Part shown: positions 6,391 through 15,581 of the stretch, piece by piece
Position numbering within the stretch: position 1 is the first letter of the stretch
How the letters are laid out: the number at the start of each line of letters is the position of its first letter
Virus genome (UHGV): UHGV-1373362
Reading direction: 5' to 3' (one strand)
Length of the DNA stretch: 64,000 nucleotides
Source: a virus
The notes under the pieces: generated by a model
What the model saw: the letters and a program-made list of their open reading frames with translations, nothing else
Databases searched by the model: none
What the model was told of the DNA's origin: nothing
Made by a program: the position numbers and the translations under genes

Positions 6391-9231
6391 TTACACTTCT
6401 AATAATATTGGACTTTGTGCAGATAGTTGATTAACTAGAGTCTCTAGTGCCTCAATCCTTTCCATCAATATTTTACCTTGGGTTGCTGATAAACTATATG
6501 AAGGATTTGTTGAGTTGGTATCGTTAACTACATGAGTTATTATAGCTGTATCCATCATACATACTGCTTCTTCTACATTGTAGTTTATGTTTATAATTAA
6601 CTCTCTATCTATAGAATATCTAAACTGTATAGTCAAAGCATTAACGCCTATTACTTTATTATAAGATACTAAAGATATATCATCCGTTTCTAATATTATA
6701 ATGTGTGCATCGAGAATTTTATTTACATATTCGAGAGCTAATTCAAATGATCCAAAGTAGGTAACTAAATTAGATGTAATATATAAACTATTGGGAATTA
6801 ATACACTTCTAGTTTCTAATAGTTCAATCCTTGATTTTATGTCTGCATCATTGTAATTAGTAAGTCCTTTTAATTTATCCCTATCTTCATTAGTAAAGTC
6901 ATTAGTACTTAGACCCTTACCGTTCTCTTTATCAACTTTACCACTAATATCAGGAATTTCAGTCTTTAGAGCGTAACCACTTAAATCAACTACGGGTAGT
7001 TCTTCAATTTTCTGATTAACATATTCTTCAGTAGCCAATCCACTAATATCTGGTATCGTCGGAAGGTTAGTTAAATCATTATAGTCACCAGAAAACAATT
7101 CAGATTTATTTGCTTTACTAGCTAGTTCTGTATTTACTTGTTCTACAGTACTGTCTAAGTTATTAATGTCTTGGTCAAGTTCATTTAGCTTATCACCAAC
7201 TCCTTTGAATGTATTATAGTTAGGATCTGATCCCTGAGTTAATGCTCCAAGCTGGGAATCAGTATATGAATAAGCATTGGACAATGCTTCAGCTGCACTA
7301 CCCTTTGATTCAGCCCCCAACTCATCTAATGTATATGTAGGTTTATTGGGTTCTTTAGCCCATGCAGGCACAGTTGGGTCTGTCTCGGTGAATGATGTTA
7401 AATATCCCTTACTTTCTAATTGTTCCTCCGTTACTAGACCCCCAGGGAGTGTAGTAAGAAATCCAGAGTCATTCTCTAGTTGTGATGTTCTAACTGGAAT
7501 TTCAGACTTGTCAGCTTTACCACTGATATCAGGAATTTCAGACTTATTGGCTTTTTTATCCACCTCAGTCTCTAAATCAGATATTAGCTGTCTAACTTGA
7601 GTATCACTATAATTAAATAATCCACTTAATTTAGCCTTTTCCTCTACAGTAAAGCTCTGTTCAGAGAGTCCCATTCCAGATACTTTATCAACCTTATTGT
7701 TCCACCTAGTTATGTCACTTTGATTTATAGTTTTAGCCGCGCTAGCTGTAAACTGAGGTTCAACCTCTTCAGTTAAGTACCCCTTAGCATCTAATTCCTT
7801 CTCTGTAATGTATTCAGCTGGGATACTAGTCAAATACCCTATATCATCATGTAGTTGTGATATTTCAGTAGGTATTTCAGACTTATCGGCTTTTCCACTA
7901 ATGTCTGGAATCATTTTATTTACCTCGGCCTTGGTATAATAGTTAGATAAATTGATTTCTCCAGCTTGAATAGCTTCTAACTTCCTATCAATCGTAGCTT
8001 TATCATACGTATCATACTTATCTGCCTTAGTAGTTAGTAACTCCTTAATAGTAGTTGTATCAAGTATATTGGAGTCAAAGTTTCCTAAATTTACTACTTC
8101 TATTGTAGTCTCTCCTAATCCTGGGTTTGCACTTTTAAATATATAGTAGACATCACCAAACAATTCCTGAGTACCTAGTAATCGGAATCCTCCTATAATG
8201 CTATTTACAGATAATACAGCGTTATACCCATTAGGAATTAATACATATATATAATCCTTGGCTCCGGCATCAACAGTAAATGCATTATCGGTGGTCTTAC
8301 TTAACTGAGTATAATCGGGAGAAATTCCATAGAATGTGGGATACTTAATATCAAACGTAAGTACTTTTGATCCTGTATTTTCTCCATATTTACATTTAAG
8401 AGTAATTATCATTGAAGTAGTCATTCCGTGGTAGGTATATTGCCTAATCTTTGGATCTAATGATACTCCATTGATAGATTGCTCTTCTACATCTTTATAA
8501 TACTCCCACATTACCTTTACATCAGTTGGATCATCACCATAGCACATATACTCAGGATCGAGTAGCATGGATTTGATATTATCATCAACAGACGCAGCTT
8601 CTATCCTGGCATTTACCCATTCAGTAGATGCAATTCTATTAGAATTGTCTGATATAAGTGGCAAAGTTGTGGTTGGAAGACCAGTGAAGTTGGGAGAAAA
8701 TATATCAGCTTTATTTTTAAATCTAACTTCTATCTCACATGCCCATTGAGCAAGTTTAAGGTTAATTTCATCAATAACCTTATTAATATCAAAGGCTATC
8801 GAATCAATTACAAAGGTATATAAATCTTTCTGATTAGACAAGTTACCCTTGATGTTTCCCCACTTTAAGGCATATTCATCTGCTATACCAAGATTAATTC
8901 TGGCTATGGCCCTCTGATACTCATCTGTTAGTTCAGAAAATAAGTTATCCTTTTGGAATCCATGATCACCAGACGCACACCCATAGTACCTGGAAACATC
9001 GCAGTCATCCTTAATACAGATGTGTTCTACTTCCTCACTTTCCACTAATGCACCACCTACCTTATCAATTTCTACAACACCATAGGTAGCACAAATACCA
9101 TCCACCTCAGTATCCTCTATAACTCCATCAATAATCTTAGTATCAGGAGTTATATTAGAAATTGAGTGTGGGTGGTTAGGCATAATAGGAAGATCTTGTT
9201 CTCTTTCATCAAGACTTACAAACTCCGTCAT
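6391..9231 (-). CDS. Large repeat-containing tail fibre / baseplate protein (946 aa)
   Basis: Tandem peptide repeats IPDISGKADKSEIP (x3-4) and the motif GKGLSTNDFTNEDRDKLKGL, which is also present in the DGR target fibre; acidic fibrous composition. Confidence 0.55.
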   Translation of the reverse strand: MTEFVSLDEREQDLPIMPNHPHSISNITPDTKIIDGVIEDTEVDGICATYGVVEIDKVGGALVESEEVEHICIKDDCDVSRYYGCASGDHGFQKDNLFSELTDEYQRAIARINLGIADEYALKWGNIKGNLSNQKDLYTFVIDSIAFDINKVIDEINLKLAQWACEIEVRFKNKADIFSPNFTGLPTTTLPLISDNSNRIASTEWVNARIEAASVDDNIKSMLLDPEYMCYGDDPTDVKVMWEYYKDVEEQSINGVSLDPKIRQYTYHGMTTSMIITLKCKYGENTGSKVLTFDIKYPTFYGISPDYTQLSKTTDNAFTVDAGAKDYIYVLIPNGYNAVLSVNSIIGGFRLLGTQELFGDVYYIFKSANPGLGETTIEVVNLGNFDSNILDTTTIKELLTTKADKYDTYDKATIDRKLEAIQAGEINLSNYYTKAEVNKMIPDISGKADKSEIPTEISQLHDDIGYLTSIPAEYITEKELDAKGYLTEEVEPQFTASAAKTINQSDITRWNNKVDKVSGMGLSEQSFTVEEKAKLSGLFNYSDTQVRQLISDLETEVDKKANKSEIPDISGKADKSEIPVRTSQLENDSGFLTTLPGGLVTEEQLESKGYLTSFTETDPTVPAWAKEPNKPTYTLDELGAESKGSAAEALSNAYSYTDSQLGALTQGSDPNYNTFKGVGDKLNELDQDINNLDSTVEQVNTELASKANKSELFSGDYNDLTNLPTIPDISGLATEEYVNQKIEELPVVDLSGYALKTEIPDISGKVDKENGKGLSTNDFTNEDRDKLKGLTNYNDADIKSRIELLETRSVLIPNSLYITSNLVTYFGSFELALEYVNKILDAHIIILETDDISLVSYNKVIGVNALTIQFRYSIDRELIININYNVEEAVCMMDTAIITHVVNDTNSTNPSYSLSATQGKILMERIEALETLVNQLSAQSPILLEV

Positions 9232-9234
9232 GTT

Positions 9235-10215
9235 TTAAATTTGTATAATTTGGTATGCATATGTCATAGGGTCTAAGAATGAAATAATAGTTGCTTCATT
9301 AACCTTATGAATAGTTTTGGTAATAGTCATAGACATACTAGTATCACCGATAGGAAATATTTTATTATATAGTGATCCCTCCATATAACATACATTCTCG
9401 TTGAACATGTTTCCTACAGAGTTCCACCTTAGGGTAGTATCATGGCAACCTCTGAGAAATGTATTACCCTTACAATCAGCTTCTAGTACATTGTTATAAG
9501 TATCTCCCAGAAAGATATTATTAGTACATCCTTGCTTTAATTCATTGTGCTTAGTATTGTGTAATTCCGAACTGTCAGTAATCACACCACTAGTTAGATC
9601 AGAAAATGTAAAGAAATCACCGTACGCAGCACCCAAACTAAGATTAGAGTCCTCTAGTTCTTCAGCTGTCCTTCTAAATCTAATGTTTTTAAAGTCATAG
9701 TAGGCTGAATTATCATTGTGATCTCTCATATAGGTAATTCTACCTTTATCAGTAATACCATCTTCTAATACAGTTTGAGTAGGATCATACTCTATTACCC
9801 AATCTTTCATTTTAGGATCATCTATAACTATTCTAGGATCAGTTCTTTCCTTGGTGATAGCAGTTACTATCAATTTCCAAATTGGAGAGGGATTAGTAGA
9901 GTTTGTAGTACCCCATGTAACCTTTTGTCCTGAACTATTAGTAACATTAGAAGAGTAAATAGTTTGATAATCAGTAATTACATACCTAGCACTAGTTACT
10001 AGGCCCTTCTTTTTTATCGTATCATTAAATACAGCATATGTAAGTTCAAGTGGTGCAGATTGCCCTCCCTCTCCGGTATAATCCACTATGCCTATATTCT
10101 TTCTTAATTGTTGTTGTTCTAGTTCAGTTAATCCCCCAAGTAGTTCCTTTTTCTTGAAATAGTTATTCAGGTCATGTATACACGCATAACGTCTTGAATC
10201 TCTCTCTATAGCCAT
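9235..10215 (-). CDS. Hypothetical structural protein (326 aa)
   Basis: ORF in the structural gene block. Confidence 0.35.
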   Translation of the reverse strand: MAIERDSRRYACIHDLNNYFKKKELLGGLTELEQQQLRKNIGIVDYTGEGGQSAPLELTYAVFNDTIKKKGLVTSARYVITDYQTIYSSNVTNSSGQKVTWGTTNSTNPSPIWKLIVTAITKERTDPRIVIDDPKMKDWVIEYDPTQTVLEDGITDKGRITYMRDHNDNSAYYDFKNIRFRRTAEELEDSNLSLGAAYGDFFTFSDLTSGVITDSSELHNTKHNELKQGCTNNIFLGDTYNNVLEADCKGNTFLRGCHDTTLRWNSVGNMFNENVCYMEGSLYNKIFPIGDTSMSMTITKTIHKVNEATIISFLDPMTYAYQIIQI

Positions 10216-10216
10216 A

Positions 10217-10402
10217 TTAATTATTAATTAGGAACTCATATATACCATCTATCTTATCAAAGTATTGACAGGTCTGAATAAAGGATATTTGGTGTAATAT
10301 CATACTGTAATCATCTATATATCCTTTATTCAGTCTTTTGAGAAATTTATTAAAATTCTCAATTACCTTTAGCTTTAGATTACCTATTGCATCCACAGCC
10401 AC
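10217..10402 (-). CDS. Small hypothetical protein (61 aa)
   Basis: ORF only. Confidence 0.2.
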   Translation of the reverse strand: MAVDAIGNLKLKVIENFNKFLKRLNKGYIDDYSMILHQISFIQTCQYFDKIDGIYEFLINN

Positions 10403-11171
10403 CTCCTATAGTATCCTTATCAATCATAACATCCTTACAAATACCCCCACATTGAGTAATATCTTCTAATACTCTCTGGGCTTCATAATATTGTTTTAAC
10501 TCGATAAGGTACTTAATAACATTAATTGCCATCCAAATAATATCTCTATTGTATATCAGATTCTTGACATCATCAACCCTGTTTCTACATCTTCCAGGTA
10601 GATCAGTTAGTAGATTTTTACACAACCTATAGAAGCATTCATTAATGTGACATACACAGAATGTGTTCTTATCTCCCCTAATAATTGTAGTTGTCTTATC
10701 AGTGATAGACGCAGGAGGTAATGCATTTACAGCTAGAACCTCTTCTATTGTAACATCAACAGACTCACTATTCAAATATTTCTTAAACGTTTGGGTGACT
10801 GCATCATAATAGTACACAGAATTATATGCAGTCAATGCAGTTGGATCTCTATCCAATACGTAAGTTAACCATTCCTGAGTTGGGATTATAATATGAGAAA
10901 CTTCATATAATCCGTCAATTGGCAACTCAATGTCAGACTCATCTATACAGTCTATAGAGTGTTCTACAATCTCATAATCTTGAAGTGTTTCATCACCTGA
11001 AGATTTTATACTTGTTATAACATTAAGAGTAATAGTTTGGGAATATGCATAGTTACGAGTACTAACAATAATTTCACCGTCCTCACTTAGATACTCATCA
11101 TTATCCTTCTCTAACCCTGTTACTGTAATACCACAAGTACCCTTTTTACAGATTTTAAATATAGAATCCAT
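10380..11171 (-). CDS. Hypothetical protein (263 aa), Cys-rich C-terminus (GGGCGCNR)
   Basis: ORF; position downstream of the DGR RT. Confidence 0.35.
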   Translation of the reverse strand: MDSIFKICKKGTCGITVTGLEKDNDEYLSEDGEIIVSTRNYAYSQTITLNVITSIKSSGDETLQDYEIVEHSIDCIDESDIELPIDGLYEVSHIIIPTQEWLTYVLDRDPTALTAYNSVYYYDAVTQTFKKYLNSESVDVTIEEVLAVNALPPASITDKTTTIIRGDKNTFCVCHINECFYRLCKNLLTDLPGRCRNRVDDVKNLIYNRDIIWMAINVIKYLIELKQYYEAQRVLEDITQCGGICKDVMIDKDTIGGGCGCNR

Positions 11172-11998
11172 TACTCAATTACAGTTACATATATTCCTAC
11201 CAAATCTTTTAGTGGGCTATAAACAGCTTGCCCCGAGTCTCTAGAGCACATGTATAACACCCCTTCCTGAGTATAATACTTACCAAGCTCTAGTTCCATA
11301 TTATTATTATATGGGATTGGATCTTCTCTAGTTCCAGCATGGGATTCACTAATTTCTTCATATAAAGCTGCTGTAGAAATACCTGGAGCTTGGTTTTCTA
11401 ATACCAAACTAATGTCCTGCTTTACCTTGTATAAGCATCCTTTATATGTTACTTTGTCTCCACTAGTTAGAGATCCTCCTATACAGCTCACCCATGTTGG
11501 ATACAAGGACTTACATGCCAAGGATTGTTCATCCGTAAGTGTAGCTGTTGTAACTAAAACTTTTAATAGATTAGCTATATCGTTTTGGGTTGGAAGTAAT
11601 TCTCCATTCATTTCAGGATCTACAATTCCAAAATCTTTTTTAACCTCAGATTTTATTATAGATACTAATCCCACGTACTCACGGTATTCAGAGCATATAT
11701 TAGAATCTTCTATAACCCCCATCTGATATGAATTATATTTATTCATTAATGCTAACTCTTCCTCAGCAGTTATATATTCTCGTATAATAGCTTGGATACA
11801 GGTATTACATTCAGGAACACCTCTTAGATGCACTTGTATATAGTTCCACCTAGTCTCCTCAGTTGATTCCCCAGATTCTATATCACTTGTTGTAACTACT
11901 CTGGATTTTATGTCATAATTATAGTAATATGTACCATTACCTAGCTTCTCTATTGTATTAGGCTGTACATTCATTTCTATTCTTCTTGGTTCTAACAT
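11171..11998 (-). CDS. Hypothetical protein (275 aa)
   Basis: ORF overlapping the 3' end of the RT gene by 41 nt. Confidence 0.35.
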   Translation of the reverse strand: MLEPRRIEMNVQPNTIEKLGNGTYYYNYDIKSRVVTTSDIESGESTEETRWNYIQVHLRGVPECNTCIQAIIREYITAEEELALMNKYNSYQMGVIEDSNICSEYREYVGLVSIIKSEVKKDFGIVDPEMNGELLPTQNDIANLLKVLVTTATLTDEQSLACKSLYPTWVSCIGGSLTSGDKVTYKGCLYKVKQDISLVLENQAPGISTAALYEEISESHAGTREDPIPYNNNMELELGKYYTQEGVLYMCSRDSGQAVYSPLKDLVGIYVTVIE

Positions 11999-13193
11999 AC
12001 GGTTGTATTTTAAAATTCACAGGTAAAGAGTATCTACTAAGAGAGTATAGTAACTCTGAATTACGACTCTCGAAATAGTATGACTTCTTATTGTAAACAA
12101 AGTTAATTCTAAAACACTTACTATAATTAACCACATCCACAACGTGTACATACTTGTTGTAAAATCTAGAAATTGTAGTCTTCTTTCCATCCCAATTAGA
12201 GAAGTGCAATCCTGTCTCCTTTTGGATTTTACATAGTAAATTCTTAGAGTTACAGAACTTTAACCATCCAAAGTAAGACTGCATTCTCTTACGTAATTCG
12301 TCTTTACTTATTAATTTCCTTTTATATTTGTTTATTAATTTAAACAATCTAATTTTGATTGATTTTCTTAATAACACGTGGGTATGGTAGAATCTATATC
12401 CTACAAAGTCTATTCCCCTGCTTTCTACAGGGAATATTTGATAGTTTTGTTTCAACTTTAAATTTAAGACCTCTCTTAGATATATCTTTATCGCTATTAA
12501 GACATTTCTTAAGAAATTCTTATCACTGCTGAGAATTACAATATCATCAGCACACCTGAAATAGAATTTACATTTCAGTTCTTCCTTGACCCAATGATCA
12601 AAGTAGGCAAGGTATAGATTGGCAAAGAACTGAGATAAATAGTTACCAATAGGAACCCCATCCGCAGAATAAATAATCCCAATCAGTAAAACTAATAAAC
12701 TATTATCCTTAACCTTACGCTTAATTATTTCACATAATATATCGTGGTCAATAGAGGGATAAAACTTTTTTACATCTATTTTCAGACAATAAAACGTTTC
12801 ATCCGGATATTTTCTCAAGGCAGCCCTCAAATCATGGGCTACATTATGAATACCTCTGTCCTTAATGCAGGAATAGGTCTGCTTAATAAATATTTTAGTC
12901 CAGATGGATTCCATTATATTCATGATAGCATGATGTGTTATTCGGTCTGGATAATATGGTAGCCTAAATATTAGTCTTTCTTTAGGTTCATATATTGTGA
13001 ACGTACTATATTCCGAAGTTTCATAAACCAAGTCCCTTAGTTGTTCAGAAAGTTTTTGGTTCTCCCTCTCTTTATTTCTATCATGCTTTAAAATTCCCCA
13101 TCTAACTGATTTGTGCTTTCTAGCCTTATTATCTGCTTTCTCAATGTTCTCTATATCATACACCTGTTCATGTAAATATCCTATCCTTTTCAA
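11958..13193 (-). CDS. Diversity-generating retroelement (DGR) reverse transcriptase
   Basis: RT motifs: FRCADDIVIL (YxDD box) and, upstream of it, PIGNYLSQFFANLYL (the IGxxxSQ signature that distinguishes DGR RTs from group II intron RTs, which have QGxxxSP). About 410 aa. Lies directly beside the TR/VR repeat pair. Confidence 0.85.
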   Translation of the reverse strand: MKRIGYLHEQVYDIENIEKADNKARKHKSVRWGILKHDRNKERENQKLSEQLRDLVYETSEYSTFTIYEPKERLIFRLPYYPDRITHHAIMNIMESIWTKIFIKQTYSCIKDRGIHNVAHDLRAALRKYPDETFYCLKIDVKKFYPSIDHDILCEIIKRKVKDNSLLVLLIGIIYSADGVPIGNYLSQFFANLYLAYFDHWVKEELKCKFYFRCADDIVILSSDKNFLRNVLIAIKIYLREVLNLKLKQNYQIFPVESRGIDFVGYRFYHTHVLLRKSIKIRLFKLINKYKRKLISKDELRKRMQSYFGWLKFCNSKNLLCKIQKETGLHFSNWDGKKTTISRFYNKYVHVVDVVNYSKCFRINFVYNKKSYYFESRNSELLYSLSRYSLPVNFKIQPYVRTKKNRNECTA

Positions 13194-13335
13194 AGTCTTA
13201 TATATTTAATTTGGAAGCTTTCGAGATTTAACCTACTAACACCCGTTTATCCTAAATACTACTATATTTTTTGCCAAGAGGCAGGGATACTGTTTAGACT
13301 GAATAAGTAAAAACTATCAAAATGAAATATATAAC

Positions 13336-13438
13336 AAACCTACATTAGCATTAGAATTGCTAACTCCATTATTAGAATTGAAGTAGCTAAGACTGGCATT
13401 ACTACCATTATTAGCGTTGCTACTAACGATGAGTGTTT
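13336..13438 (-). repeat. DGR template repeat (TR), about 103 bp, intergenic between RT and target gene
   Basis: Aligns with 13543-13645 at an offset of 207 nt. All of the roughly 27 mismatches fall at plus-strand T in this copy (A on the coding minus strand). In the target-gene frame the TR reads TLIVSSNANNGSNASLSYFNSNNGVSNSNANVG, rich in AAY codons. Confidence 0.85.
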
Positions 13439-13520
13439 TGTAGTAATCATCCTTGTCCTACAACTAATGTAAAAGTAAACAGTATCCTTAATCTTTATAC
13501 CTATAAATCTAGTATTGATT

Positions 13521-15581
13521 TTATATTTTATTTATCGTTCTGAAACCCACATGAGCAGTAGAAAGGCCAACCCCAGTACTAGAATAGAAGCAGCCAAGAC
13601 CGGCAAGACCACCATCATAAGCGCCGCCACCAACGATGAGCGTCCTCAATGCTGTGCTTGATGCATTACAGTAGTGGTAGTCACACATATATGTCGTAGT
13701 AGAGCCGCCCACCTTAGATGGAATGATCTCCCCTGTTTCACCCAGGTCAAAATCAGTAGTATAACCATCTGAAGCAATCTCGATCCCAGTTACAGACATT
13801 TTACCTTTAGCTACATTATCATCGCCAAACGCTGATGTGTCAATCGTAGTGTATACATTACTAGGCTGATTTGCAGTTGTTCTTTCTATAATTATTCCAT
13901 CTAAATTAGTCCAGATGTCTCCAAATGGATTATCAAATCCTCTCCATCTTGGAACTTTAAATGTCTTAGTAGCTACTGTTGTGGATTCGTTTACCACAGT
14001 TTCAGGAATTACTAAATCCTTAACACCAGTAAAGTTACCAAACTCATTGCAATATCCACATGGAGTTATTGGGTAATTCCCATTATAACTTGTCCAGATA
14101 TCCCAATTCCATGTAGTAACACCATCTCCTAAACCACCTTGATGATAACCTTCAGCAGTTAATTCAGCGTTATATGCAGCTTGAGAGTTAAGTGTTGCAT
14201 ATTCAATAACCCAAGCCCAGTAGAATATCCATTTGTAATACTCATAGCATAATAGTTCTGAGCCTGCATTAGCAGCATAAGTTCTCATGTTAGCTCTTGT
14301 AGTGTTGGTTCTAGGTTTTCCCAGATCACTTCTAAAGGCATCTGTACTCAGGTACGTATCGTTAGCAGTTCTATTACCTCCGCCTCTGAATTGAGCAGTA
14401 GTATTAACTACAGAAACAGCCTTATTGCCAGTCTGATTTACTGTACATCTATAGGCGTCCACTAACATCTCTGGAATTTCAATCCACGTATTATCTATTT
14501 TGACGGTAGACATTCGTACCCATTTCTTTACTCCACTAATTCCAGACTTACCATAAAACTTAGGTATGTGTACTCTTATTGAACCATCAGTTCCGTCAAG
14601 TACTGAATCCTCACCTGTAATCTTCTTACTCCAATCATTAGGATTTAAGTAGTAATTAATCATTGAACCATTAGCCACGCAACCCCTATATTGAGACTGC
14701 ACTGGTAGGGATTTATGTAATAGTGTGTTTCCAATTCTAGTTAATGTGGGGTCTGCCACAGTAGTATCCCATTCTACACCATAAGAATAAATATCTTCAT
14801 ATCCAGTATAGCTAGGAGTATCCTCCCACTTAGCAGTTCCATCACCGTTATTTACTAATATCTGACCTAAAGTACCTCCTGCTGGAATGTGCTTATTACC
14901 AGCTGTAGTGGGATGTATATAGTTGTTAGCTGACTCCTCAATAGAATCCAATTTAACTTTATCTAGCATTGATAACACACCTGCGGCTTCAGTAGTAGCA
15001 GCAGGTAATGAAGTAGTTAAGTTAGGAAATTGACTACTATAATTCCTTTCCAATGTTATAGTAACTGTACCTTGTAATGGATTGTTTCTAATAGCATTTA
15101 CACCAGTTATGCCCTCTAATTTGGTTTTATGCTCTGAAGTAAAGTCATTAGTACTCAGCTCCTTTCCTTCAATTTTATCAACTTTACCTGCTAAAGAGGA
15201 TTTAATATCTGTGTCATCGTAATTCTCTAAAGAATCTAATTTAATCTTTTCCTCACTAGTTACAAATTTATGAGTATCATCTTCTACTATGATAGAGGCA
15301 GGGTGAGTATCTGGATGGGTGTAATTGTTAGCCCCCTCAGCTATGCCATCCAATTTAGATTTAAGTTCAGTAGTAAAATTCTCATCACTAAGTACTTTAC
15401 TACCTTCTTTATCAACTTTACCTGCTAGGGCATTTGTTAATTCCTCTTGAGTAATTACATCACCCTTTATGTCTGATACAGTAGTAGTTTTATTTGTCCC
15501 ATTCTGAACTATGGGAATCAGCTCGTCACCATTAAGTGATTCTGCCAGTGGCATTTGGGAAATTTTTACATCCGTAACCAT
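13521..15581 (-). CDS. DGR target: tail fibre / receptor-binding protein with hypervariable C-terminal domain (686 aa)
   Basis: Contains the VR at its C-terminus. Fibre repeat motifs (IEGKELSTNDFTSEHKTKLEGI, SKVLSDENFTTELKSKLDGI). Its N-terminal motif (ELIPIVQNG.NK.TTVSDI) is shared with the 125-aa protein at 16278-16655. Confidence 0.8.
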   Translation of the reverse strand: MVTDVKISQMPLAESLNGDELIPIVQNGTNKTTTVSDIKGDVITQEELTNALAGKVDKEGSKVLSDENFTTELKSKLDGIAEGANNYTHPDTHPASIIVEDDTHKFVTSEEKIKLDSLENYDDTDIKSSLAGKVDKIEGKELSTNDFTSEHKTKLEGITGVNAIRNNPLQGTVTITLERNYSSQFPNLTTSLPAATTEAAGVLSMLDKVKLDSIEESANNYIHPTTAGNKHIPAGGTLGQILVNNGDGTAKWEDTPSYTGYEDIYSYGVEWDTTVADPTLTRIGNTLLHKSLPVQSQYRGCVANGSMINYYLNPNDWSKKITGEDSVLDGTDGSIRVHIPKFYGKSGISGVKKWVRMSTVKIDNTWIEIPEMLVDAYRCTVNQTGNKAVSVVNTTAQFRGGGNRTANDTYLSTDAFRSDLGKPRTNTTRANMRTYAANAGSELLCYEYYKWIFYWAWVIEYATLNSQAAYNAELTAEGYHQGGLGDGVTTWNWDIWTSYNGNYPITPCGYCNEFGNFTGVKDLVIPETVVNESTTVATKTFKVPRWRGFDNPFGDIWTNLDGIIIERTTANQPSNVYTTIDTSAFGDDNVAKGKMSVTGIEIASDGYTTDFDLGETGEIIPSKVGGSTTTYMCDYHYCNASSTALRTLIVGGGAYDGGLAGLGCFYSSTGVGLSTAHVGFRTINKI
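13543..13645 (-). repeat. DGR variable repeat (VR) inside the 3' end of the target gene
   Basis: Same alignment. Encodes ...LIVGGGAYDGGLAGLGCFYSSTGVGLSTAHVG... about 7 codons before the stop; every difference from the TR is at a TR adenine. Confidence 0.85.

Follow-up and report, generated by a model that had tools for sequence, protein, structure and literature searches.

The virus genome UHGV-1373362 very probably carries, within the 64-kb stretch of DNA analysed here (the window), a diversity-generating retroelement (DGR) that is devoid of Avd, follows the layout target-variable repeat (VR)-template repeat (TR)-reverse transcriptase (RT) as published for Crassvirales, and lies in the structural block of a crAss-like phage of about 185 kb; its VR appears to have been diversified recently and may since have been frozen by the RT substitution Y214C. 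DGRs of this kind have already been described in crAss-like gut phages, and the present cassette is a further example. The interpretation of the locus as a DGR, put forward in a first-pass annotation, is supported by mismatches that occur at TR adenines only, by variation confined to the VR and by a tail protein (phrog_5302) as the target. A DGR that rewrites this VR would give the tail fibre of the phage new residues at its tip.

Results

TR and VR differ exclusively at adenines

The TR (13336..13439, minus strand) is non-coding and contains 35 adenines and, in the frame of the target, 10 AAY codons, whereas the VR (13543..13646, minus strand) comprises codons 646-680 of the 686-aa target gene, corresponding to the last ~35 codons named in the first-pass annotation. 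A repeat search detected the pair as a direct repeat with an offset of 207 and 77% identity (13336-13436 versus 13543-13643). Compared base by base, the stretch with A-only differences runs from 13336 to 13439 and from 13543 to 13646 and is bounded on its 5' side by the first non-A mismatch, at 13440/13647; the pair annotated as 103 bp long (13336-13438 and 13543-13645) is real, and its extent is 104 nt. It contains 25 mismatches instead of about 27, and a count by base places 25 of 25 at a plus-strand T of the TR, i.e. at A on the coding minus strand, as had been claimed. If 25 mismatches were placed at random, all of them would land on the 35 A positions of 104 nt with a probability of 2.5e-16. 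Of these adenines, the VR keeps 10 and replaces 25, by G in 16 cases, C in 5 and T in 4. The TR is indeed intergenic: it lies in an ORF-free gap of 327 nt between the target stop codon and the RT start, from which it is separated by 142 nt. Further VR-like copies were not found within the 64-kb window.

The variable codons of the TR (ten AAY, six AGY, one TAC and one ATC) permit about 4e16 possible peptides, and the TR and VR peptides that had been given for the fibre frame are correct. At its first two codons the TR reads AAA ACA and the VR AGG ACG. These codons may fall outside the transferred tract, because Arg646 and Thr647 are constant in close relatives except for one Thr-to-Ala change. 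At the 3' end, homology stops after GT(A/G)GGTTT, beyond which the flanks diverge, and the A-free identity of VR and TR is limited to GGTTT, 5 nt past the last variable A. A GC-rich IMH resembling that of BPP-1 is not evident there, and no strong hairpin was found downstream of the VR.

The VR varies among closely related phages

VR activity was judged by comparing related genomes across samples. The same cassette is carried by 64 of 80 related IMG/VR loci, with the order VR-TR-RT kept at fixed spacing. Together, the 64 loci display 1523 TR/VR mismatches at TR adenines versus 81 elsewhere; the comparison used a fixed window, and a few columns at its 5' edge account for many of the latter. They contain 26 distinct TRs versus 63 distinct VRs, so that the TR is the conserved partner; genomes with identical TRs nearly always differ in their VRs, the sole exception being one pair of loci (L049/L050). 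In 23 relatives of the target protein (87-99% identical, mostly at least 90%), the VR is hypervariable only at codons templated by AAY, AGY, TAC or ATC. Up to 10 residues per column are found exclusively at AAY-templated codons, AGY columns vary between S and G, and the TAC column between Y and C.

Two near-identical genomes from other samples, L083 and L084, are particularly informative. Within 9570-15581 of the window, L083 differs from the window by 4 nt outside the VR and by 15 nt inside it, and L084 by 3 nt and 9 nt, respectively, with all VR differences at TR adenines; a direct comparison of L083 with L084 gives 17 nt of difference in the VR against 1 nt elsewhere. Variation across samples is thus confined to A-templated positions of the VR, with hardly any changes in the TR and the remainder of the gene, in agreement with the pattern anticipated by the first-pass annotation. 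These comparisons indicate that the phage lineage has diversified its VR very recently.

The reverse transcriptase is of the DGR type and has a derived catalytic box

The RT (11958..13193, minus strand) is 411 aa long and starts with TTG. By sequence and by predicted fold it is closest to the bRT of BPP-1, a match far stronger than any to a group II intron or retron RT, confirming the assigned DGR type. The IGNYLSQ motif reported earlier, a DGR-type (I/L)GxxxSQ element, is present at residues 182-188 (12630..12650, minus strand), and GNYLSQ is found in 118 of 119 relatives. The YADD box reported alongside it is absent: the protein reads F-R-C-A-D-D at this position (catalytic box at 12543..12554, minus strand; Cys214 codon TGT at 12552-12554), and therefore lacks an intact YxDD box while retaining both aspartates. 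The family consensus is Y-A-D-D, with 106 YADD versus about 9 variants among proteins and 72 YADD versus 3 variants among loci; one relative (P0142) has His in place of the tyrosine. The CADD box (Y214C) is derived, because RTs identical at all other residues (P0415 and those of L083 and L084) have TAT, encoding Tyr, at position 214. Y214C may have reduced or abolished RT activity, which would freeze the present VR of the window genome; given the CADD box, the current activity of this DGR is uncertain.

Residues ~335-400 of the RT (11994..12191, minus strand) form a C-terminal extension that AF2 predicts to be a small beta-rich domain (strands 348-356, 361-367, 370-376 and 392-395; helix 379-386; pLDDT about 90) with a basic tail. 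It is conserved across the RT family and has no sequence match in Pfam or PDB.

An Avd gene or other accessory gene is found neither between or beside the DGR elements nor among the small neighbouring ORFs: 14 neighbouring ORFs, within the 64-kb window of the ~185-kb genome, lack a match to PF05635, and no ORF fits into the 103-nt and 142-nt gaps. Avd is not a defining component of Wu lineage 3 and crAss DGRs. The description of the DGR as complete holds in the crAss sense of target-VR-TR-RT but does not extend to Avd.

A conserved RNA duplex brackets the TR

The TR is flanked by two complementary segments. The 5' strand, GGAUACUGUUUA (13476..13487, minus strand), precedes the TR by 36 nt and corresponds to the avd-side strand in the cPRT Stop duplex of BPP-1; the 3' strand, UAAACAGUAUCC (13285..13296, minus strand), lies 39 nt past the TR in the TR-RT spacer, where it agrees with Sp 59-70 of BPP-1 in position and context. 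Complementarity of 12-15 bp brackets the TR in every lineage. In the 12-bp duplex, 5 of 12 pairs have changes on both sides, 94% of the cells are paired versus 37-52% in slid controls, and the covariation score was reached by none of 500 shuffles. The duplex is also present in the MFE fold and gains further support from weak matches to Rfam RT-17 and RT-18. Directly past its 3' strand follows a hairpin, CUGCC-UCUU-GGCAA, with an A-run (13265..13284, minus strand), analogous to the cPRT Stop stem-loop and its A-minor adenosines; the stem is invariant in 15 lineages, whereas the loop is variable. Alignments delimit the 142-nt spacer (13194..13335, minus strand) as the putative Sp of the DGR RNA, with strong conservation of its 3' two-thirds (UAGUAGG...UCUCGAA stem region). 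The Stop duplex, the hairpin, the A-run and the RT-binding region are all retained in it, but the Avd-binding stem-loop is missing. By analogy, this architecture matches the cPRT Stop element of BPP-1 and would serve the same function. A template:primer duplex and the priming nucleotide were not located in the DGR RNA.

The target is a probable tail protein of a crAss-like phage

The target gene (13521..15581, minus strand), delineated as an ORF and by PHROG profiles, encodes a tail-fibre/tail protein of 686 aa with an N-terminal docking motif, fibre repeats and a C-terminal module of about 440 aa that ends in the VR. Residues 247-682 match phrog_5302 'tail protein' (PHROG profile search, E 1.4e-87), and a second profile, phrog_18608, is hit both by residues 46-121 and by the 946-aa fibre-like ORF at 6391-9231. 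The target shares its C-terminal 440 aa with 1797 representative proteins (400-1700 aa), which likewise carry them at the C-terminus. At the DNA level the gene is similar to crAssphage 'tail-collar fiber protein' genes, and it is situated in the structural block, beside the portal gene and the 946-aa fibre-like protein. Neither the single sequence nor a 31-sequence profile matched Pfam or PDB, and the AF2 model (pLDDT 28.5) is unusable for the fold. Published models of homologous Zeta, Alpha and Epsilon targets show fibres that end in a C-type lectin domain (PMC7290462, PMC12386605, PMC11054128), and by homology with these fibres the target has a putative C-type lectin fold, the fold that the first-pass annotation had asserted.

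The source is most likely a tRNA-rich crAss-like gut phage of about 185 kb from the Zeta group, an assignment based on genome features only. The 64-kb window contains 24 tRNAs. The portal shares 23-26% identity with crAss-like portals (E down to 2e-16), including those of Cellulophaga and Flavobacterium crAss-like phages, and relatives of the target and RT, identical or near-identical proteins included, sit on contigs of 180-190 kb.

Discussion

How might this DGR rewrite its target? Only sequence signatures are observed here, and the steps we envision follow the BPP-1 paradigm. An RNA would be transcribed from about 13500 to the RT start, and the 12-bp duplex between its segments 36 nt upstream and 39 nt downstream of the TR would close the TR into a loop. 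Docking of this RNA on the RT would involve the duplex together with the hairpin next to it, the A-run and the conserved 3' part of the spacer; the RT would then self-prime from the spacer, copy the TR into cDNA and misincorporate opposite adenines. Eventually the cDNA would take the place of the VR, the final 35 codons of the tail-fibre gene. We tentatively, and with considerable doubt, extend this scheme to crAss-type DGRs without Avd in general: the ~65-aa C-terminal domain of the RT, together with its basic tail (residues ~335-405), may take over the holding of the template:primer RNA from Avd, and recurrent point substitutions in the YADD box may be a natural means of switching the DGR off, so that a tail-fibre variant that has proved successful is frozen. 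Such substitutions (C, H or changes of Asp) are found in roughly 5-10% of natural relatives, the window genome included.

Is the DGR of the window still active? Conceivably, the cassette is structurally intact but Y214C has inactivated the RT, leaving the VR as the fixed product of past diversification, a scenario to which we assign somewhat less than an even chance. Relative to two genomes, only 3-4 positions differ over 6.6 kb outside the VR, and the Tyr-to-Cys change (TAT versus TGT) is among them; it affects a tyrosine that is at least 90% conserved in the RT family. The standard RT-null mutant of BPP-1, SMAA, alters the same box. Several members of the cluster are truncated or frameshifted. 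Moreover, the only two HADD loci, L049 and L050, are separated by 1 nt over 8 kb and do not differ in their VR, in contrast to the YADD pair L083/L084 with its 17 nt of VR divergence; the HADD comparison, however, is a single pair, possibly from the same sample. Against inactivation also stand the nature of the lesion, a single substitution that leaves the catalytic Asp pair intact, the full-length ORF and the unchanged TR and spacer. The VR is free of non-A mismatches and hence has accumulated no decay.

The origin of the variation itself is far less ambiguous. An ordinary duplication or gene-conversion tract next to the RT of a group II intron, retron or defence element without any role in variation has a negligible probability and is refuted by the A-only mismatches (P 2.5e-16, with the same bias in 64 loci), the conserved VR-TR-RT order at fixed spacing and the bRT match. 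The best NCBIfam hits of the RT, a group II intron maturase, Drt3a and a retron, are sub-threshold and come from a library without a DGR RT model, and its RVT_1 match is generic; the bRT match lies far above any of the group II or retron matches, and an Rfam search found neither intron RNA domains nor retron msr/msd. It is also improbable that the diversified product is another virion protein or a secreted protein, with a consequence other than receptor retargeting. Its C-terminal module, to be sure, is without a Pfam family, solved homologue or usable structure model, and 'tail protein' is a label from PHROG annotation. Nevertheless, PHROG tail and tail-fibre profiles both match, phrog_18608 being shared with the neighbouring fibre-like ORF, and the similarity to tail-collar fiber genes, the place beside the portal gene and the lectin-tipped models of homologous targets all argue for a tail fibre, with the VR presumably at its receptor-binding tip. 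Changes in the VR might retarget the host range. The first-pass annotation held that the phage can retarget its receptor; given its CADD box, a present ability is uncertain for the window genome.

Comparison with known systems

From the RNA perspective, the closest models are Rfam RT-17 and RT-18 (Weinberg et al., 2017, PMC5737381), which, like the spacer, directly precede an RT gene. Both share with it a UGCC-NNNN-GGCA hairpin, which is the 5' hairpin of the models, an A-run and a UAGUAG...UCGAAA stem region, and matches span the full model. The spacer resembles these families without being a member, since the matches score 27-31 bits (27.3 for RT-17; 31 in the related locus L046) versus gathering scores of 40-41 (40.4 and 41.3, respectively). 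The upstream strand of the TR-bracketing duplex lies outside the Rfam models. The BPP-1 spacer is Rfam RT-10 (PMC5737381).

Like the prototype DGR of Bordetella phage BPP-1 (mtd-avd-TR-brt), the window displays adenine-specific TR-to-VR differences and an upstream:spacer duplex followed by a stem-loop, adenosines and a conserved 3' structured region. In the BPP-1 RNA, the upstream:Sp duplex, a short stem-loop, adenosines, a single-stranded stretch and the RT-binding stem-loop follow in this order, and Stop duplexes with a mean of 13 bp have been predicted in 207 other DGRs (bioRxiv 10.1101/2023.10.23.563531). Unlike BPP-1, the window lacks Avd, a conserved stem-loop at the spacer 5' end, where BPP-1 binds Avd, a GC-rich IMH and an obvious target-site hairpin; its elements are AT-rich, its RT has the extra ~65-aa C-terminal domain relative to bRT, and its target scaffold differs at the sequence level.

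Closer relatives are found among crAss-like phages, in which TG-VR-TR-RT cassettes without avd (PMC7290462, PMC12386605, PMC11054128) have been published for the Alpha, Delta, Epsilon and Zeta groups; cr7_1 and LMMB have the same layout. CrAssphage LMMB (Intestiviridae; PMC7290462; Wu et al. lineage 3) likewise lacks avd, and its target, a tail-collar fibre gene, has a VR of 35 codons at its 3' end; its RT is ~64% identical to ours at the DNA level, and its ~1e16 possible peptides are a comparable number. LMMB differs in belonging to another phage family, with a genome of 98 kb and a target of 486 aa versus 686 aa, and in its IMH and IMH*, reported to be identical, whereas the A-free 3' identity in the window is only 5 nt.

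There is also a resemblance to Zeta crAss-like phages, as judged by published features of named genomes (ctZY71, ct5Hm1 and others) rather than by sequence alignment. Their published description includes neither a TR-bracketing RNA duplex nor active-site variants such as the CADD box seen here. In both cases, however, the genome has ~180-190 kb, ~36% GC and many tRNAs, and the DGR resides in the structural block, targets a tail fibre with a C-terminal VR and goes without Avd, which is absent from all but two Zeta genomes. The Zeta RT is full-length, with GxxxSQ and a long variable C-terminus, and reaches up to 414 aa, compared with 411 aa in the window.

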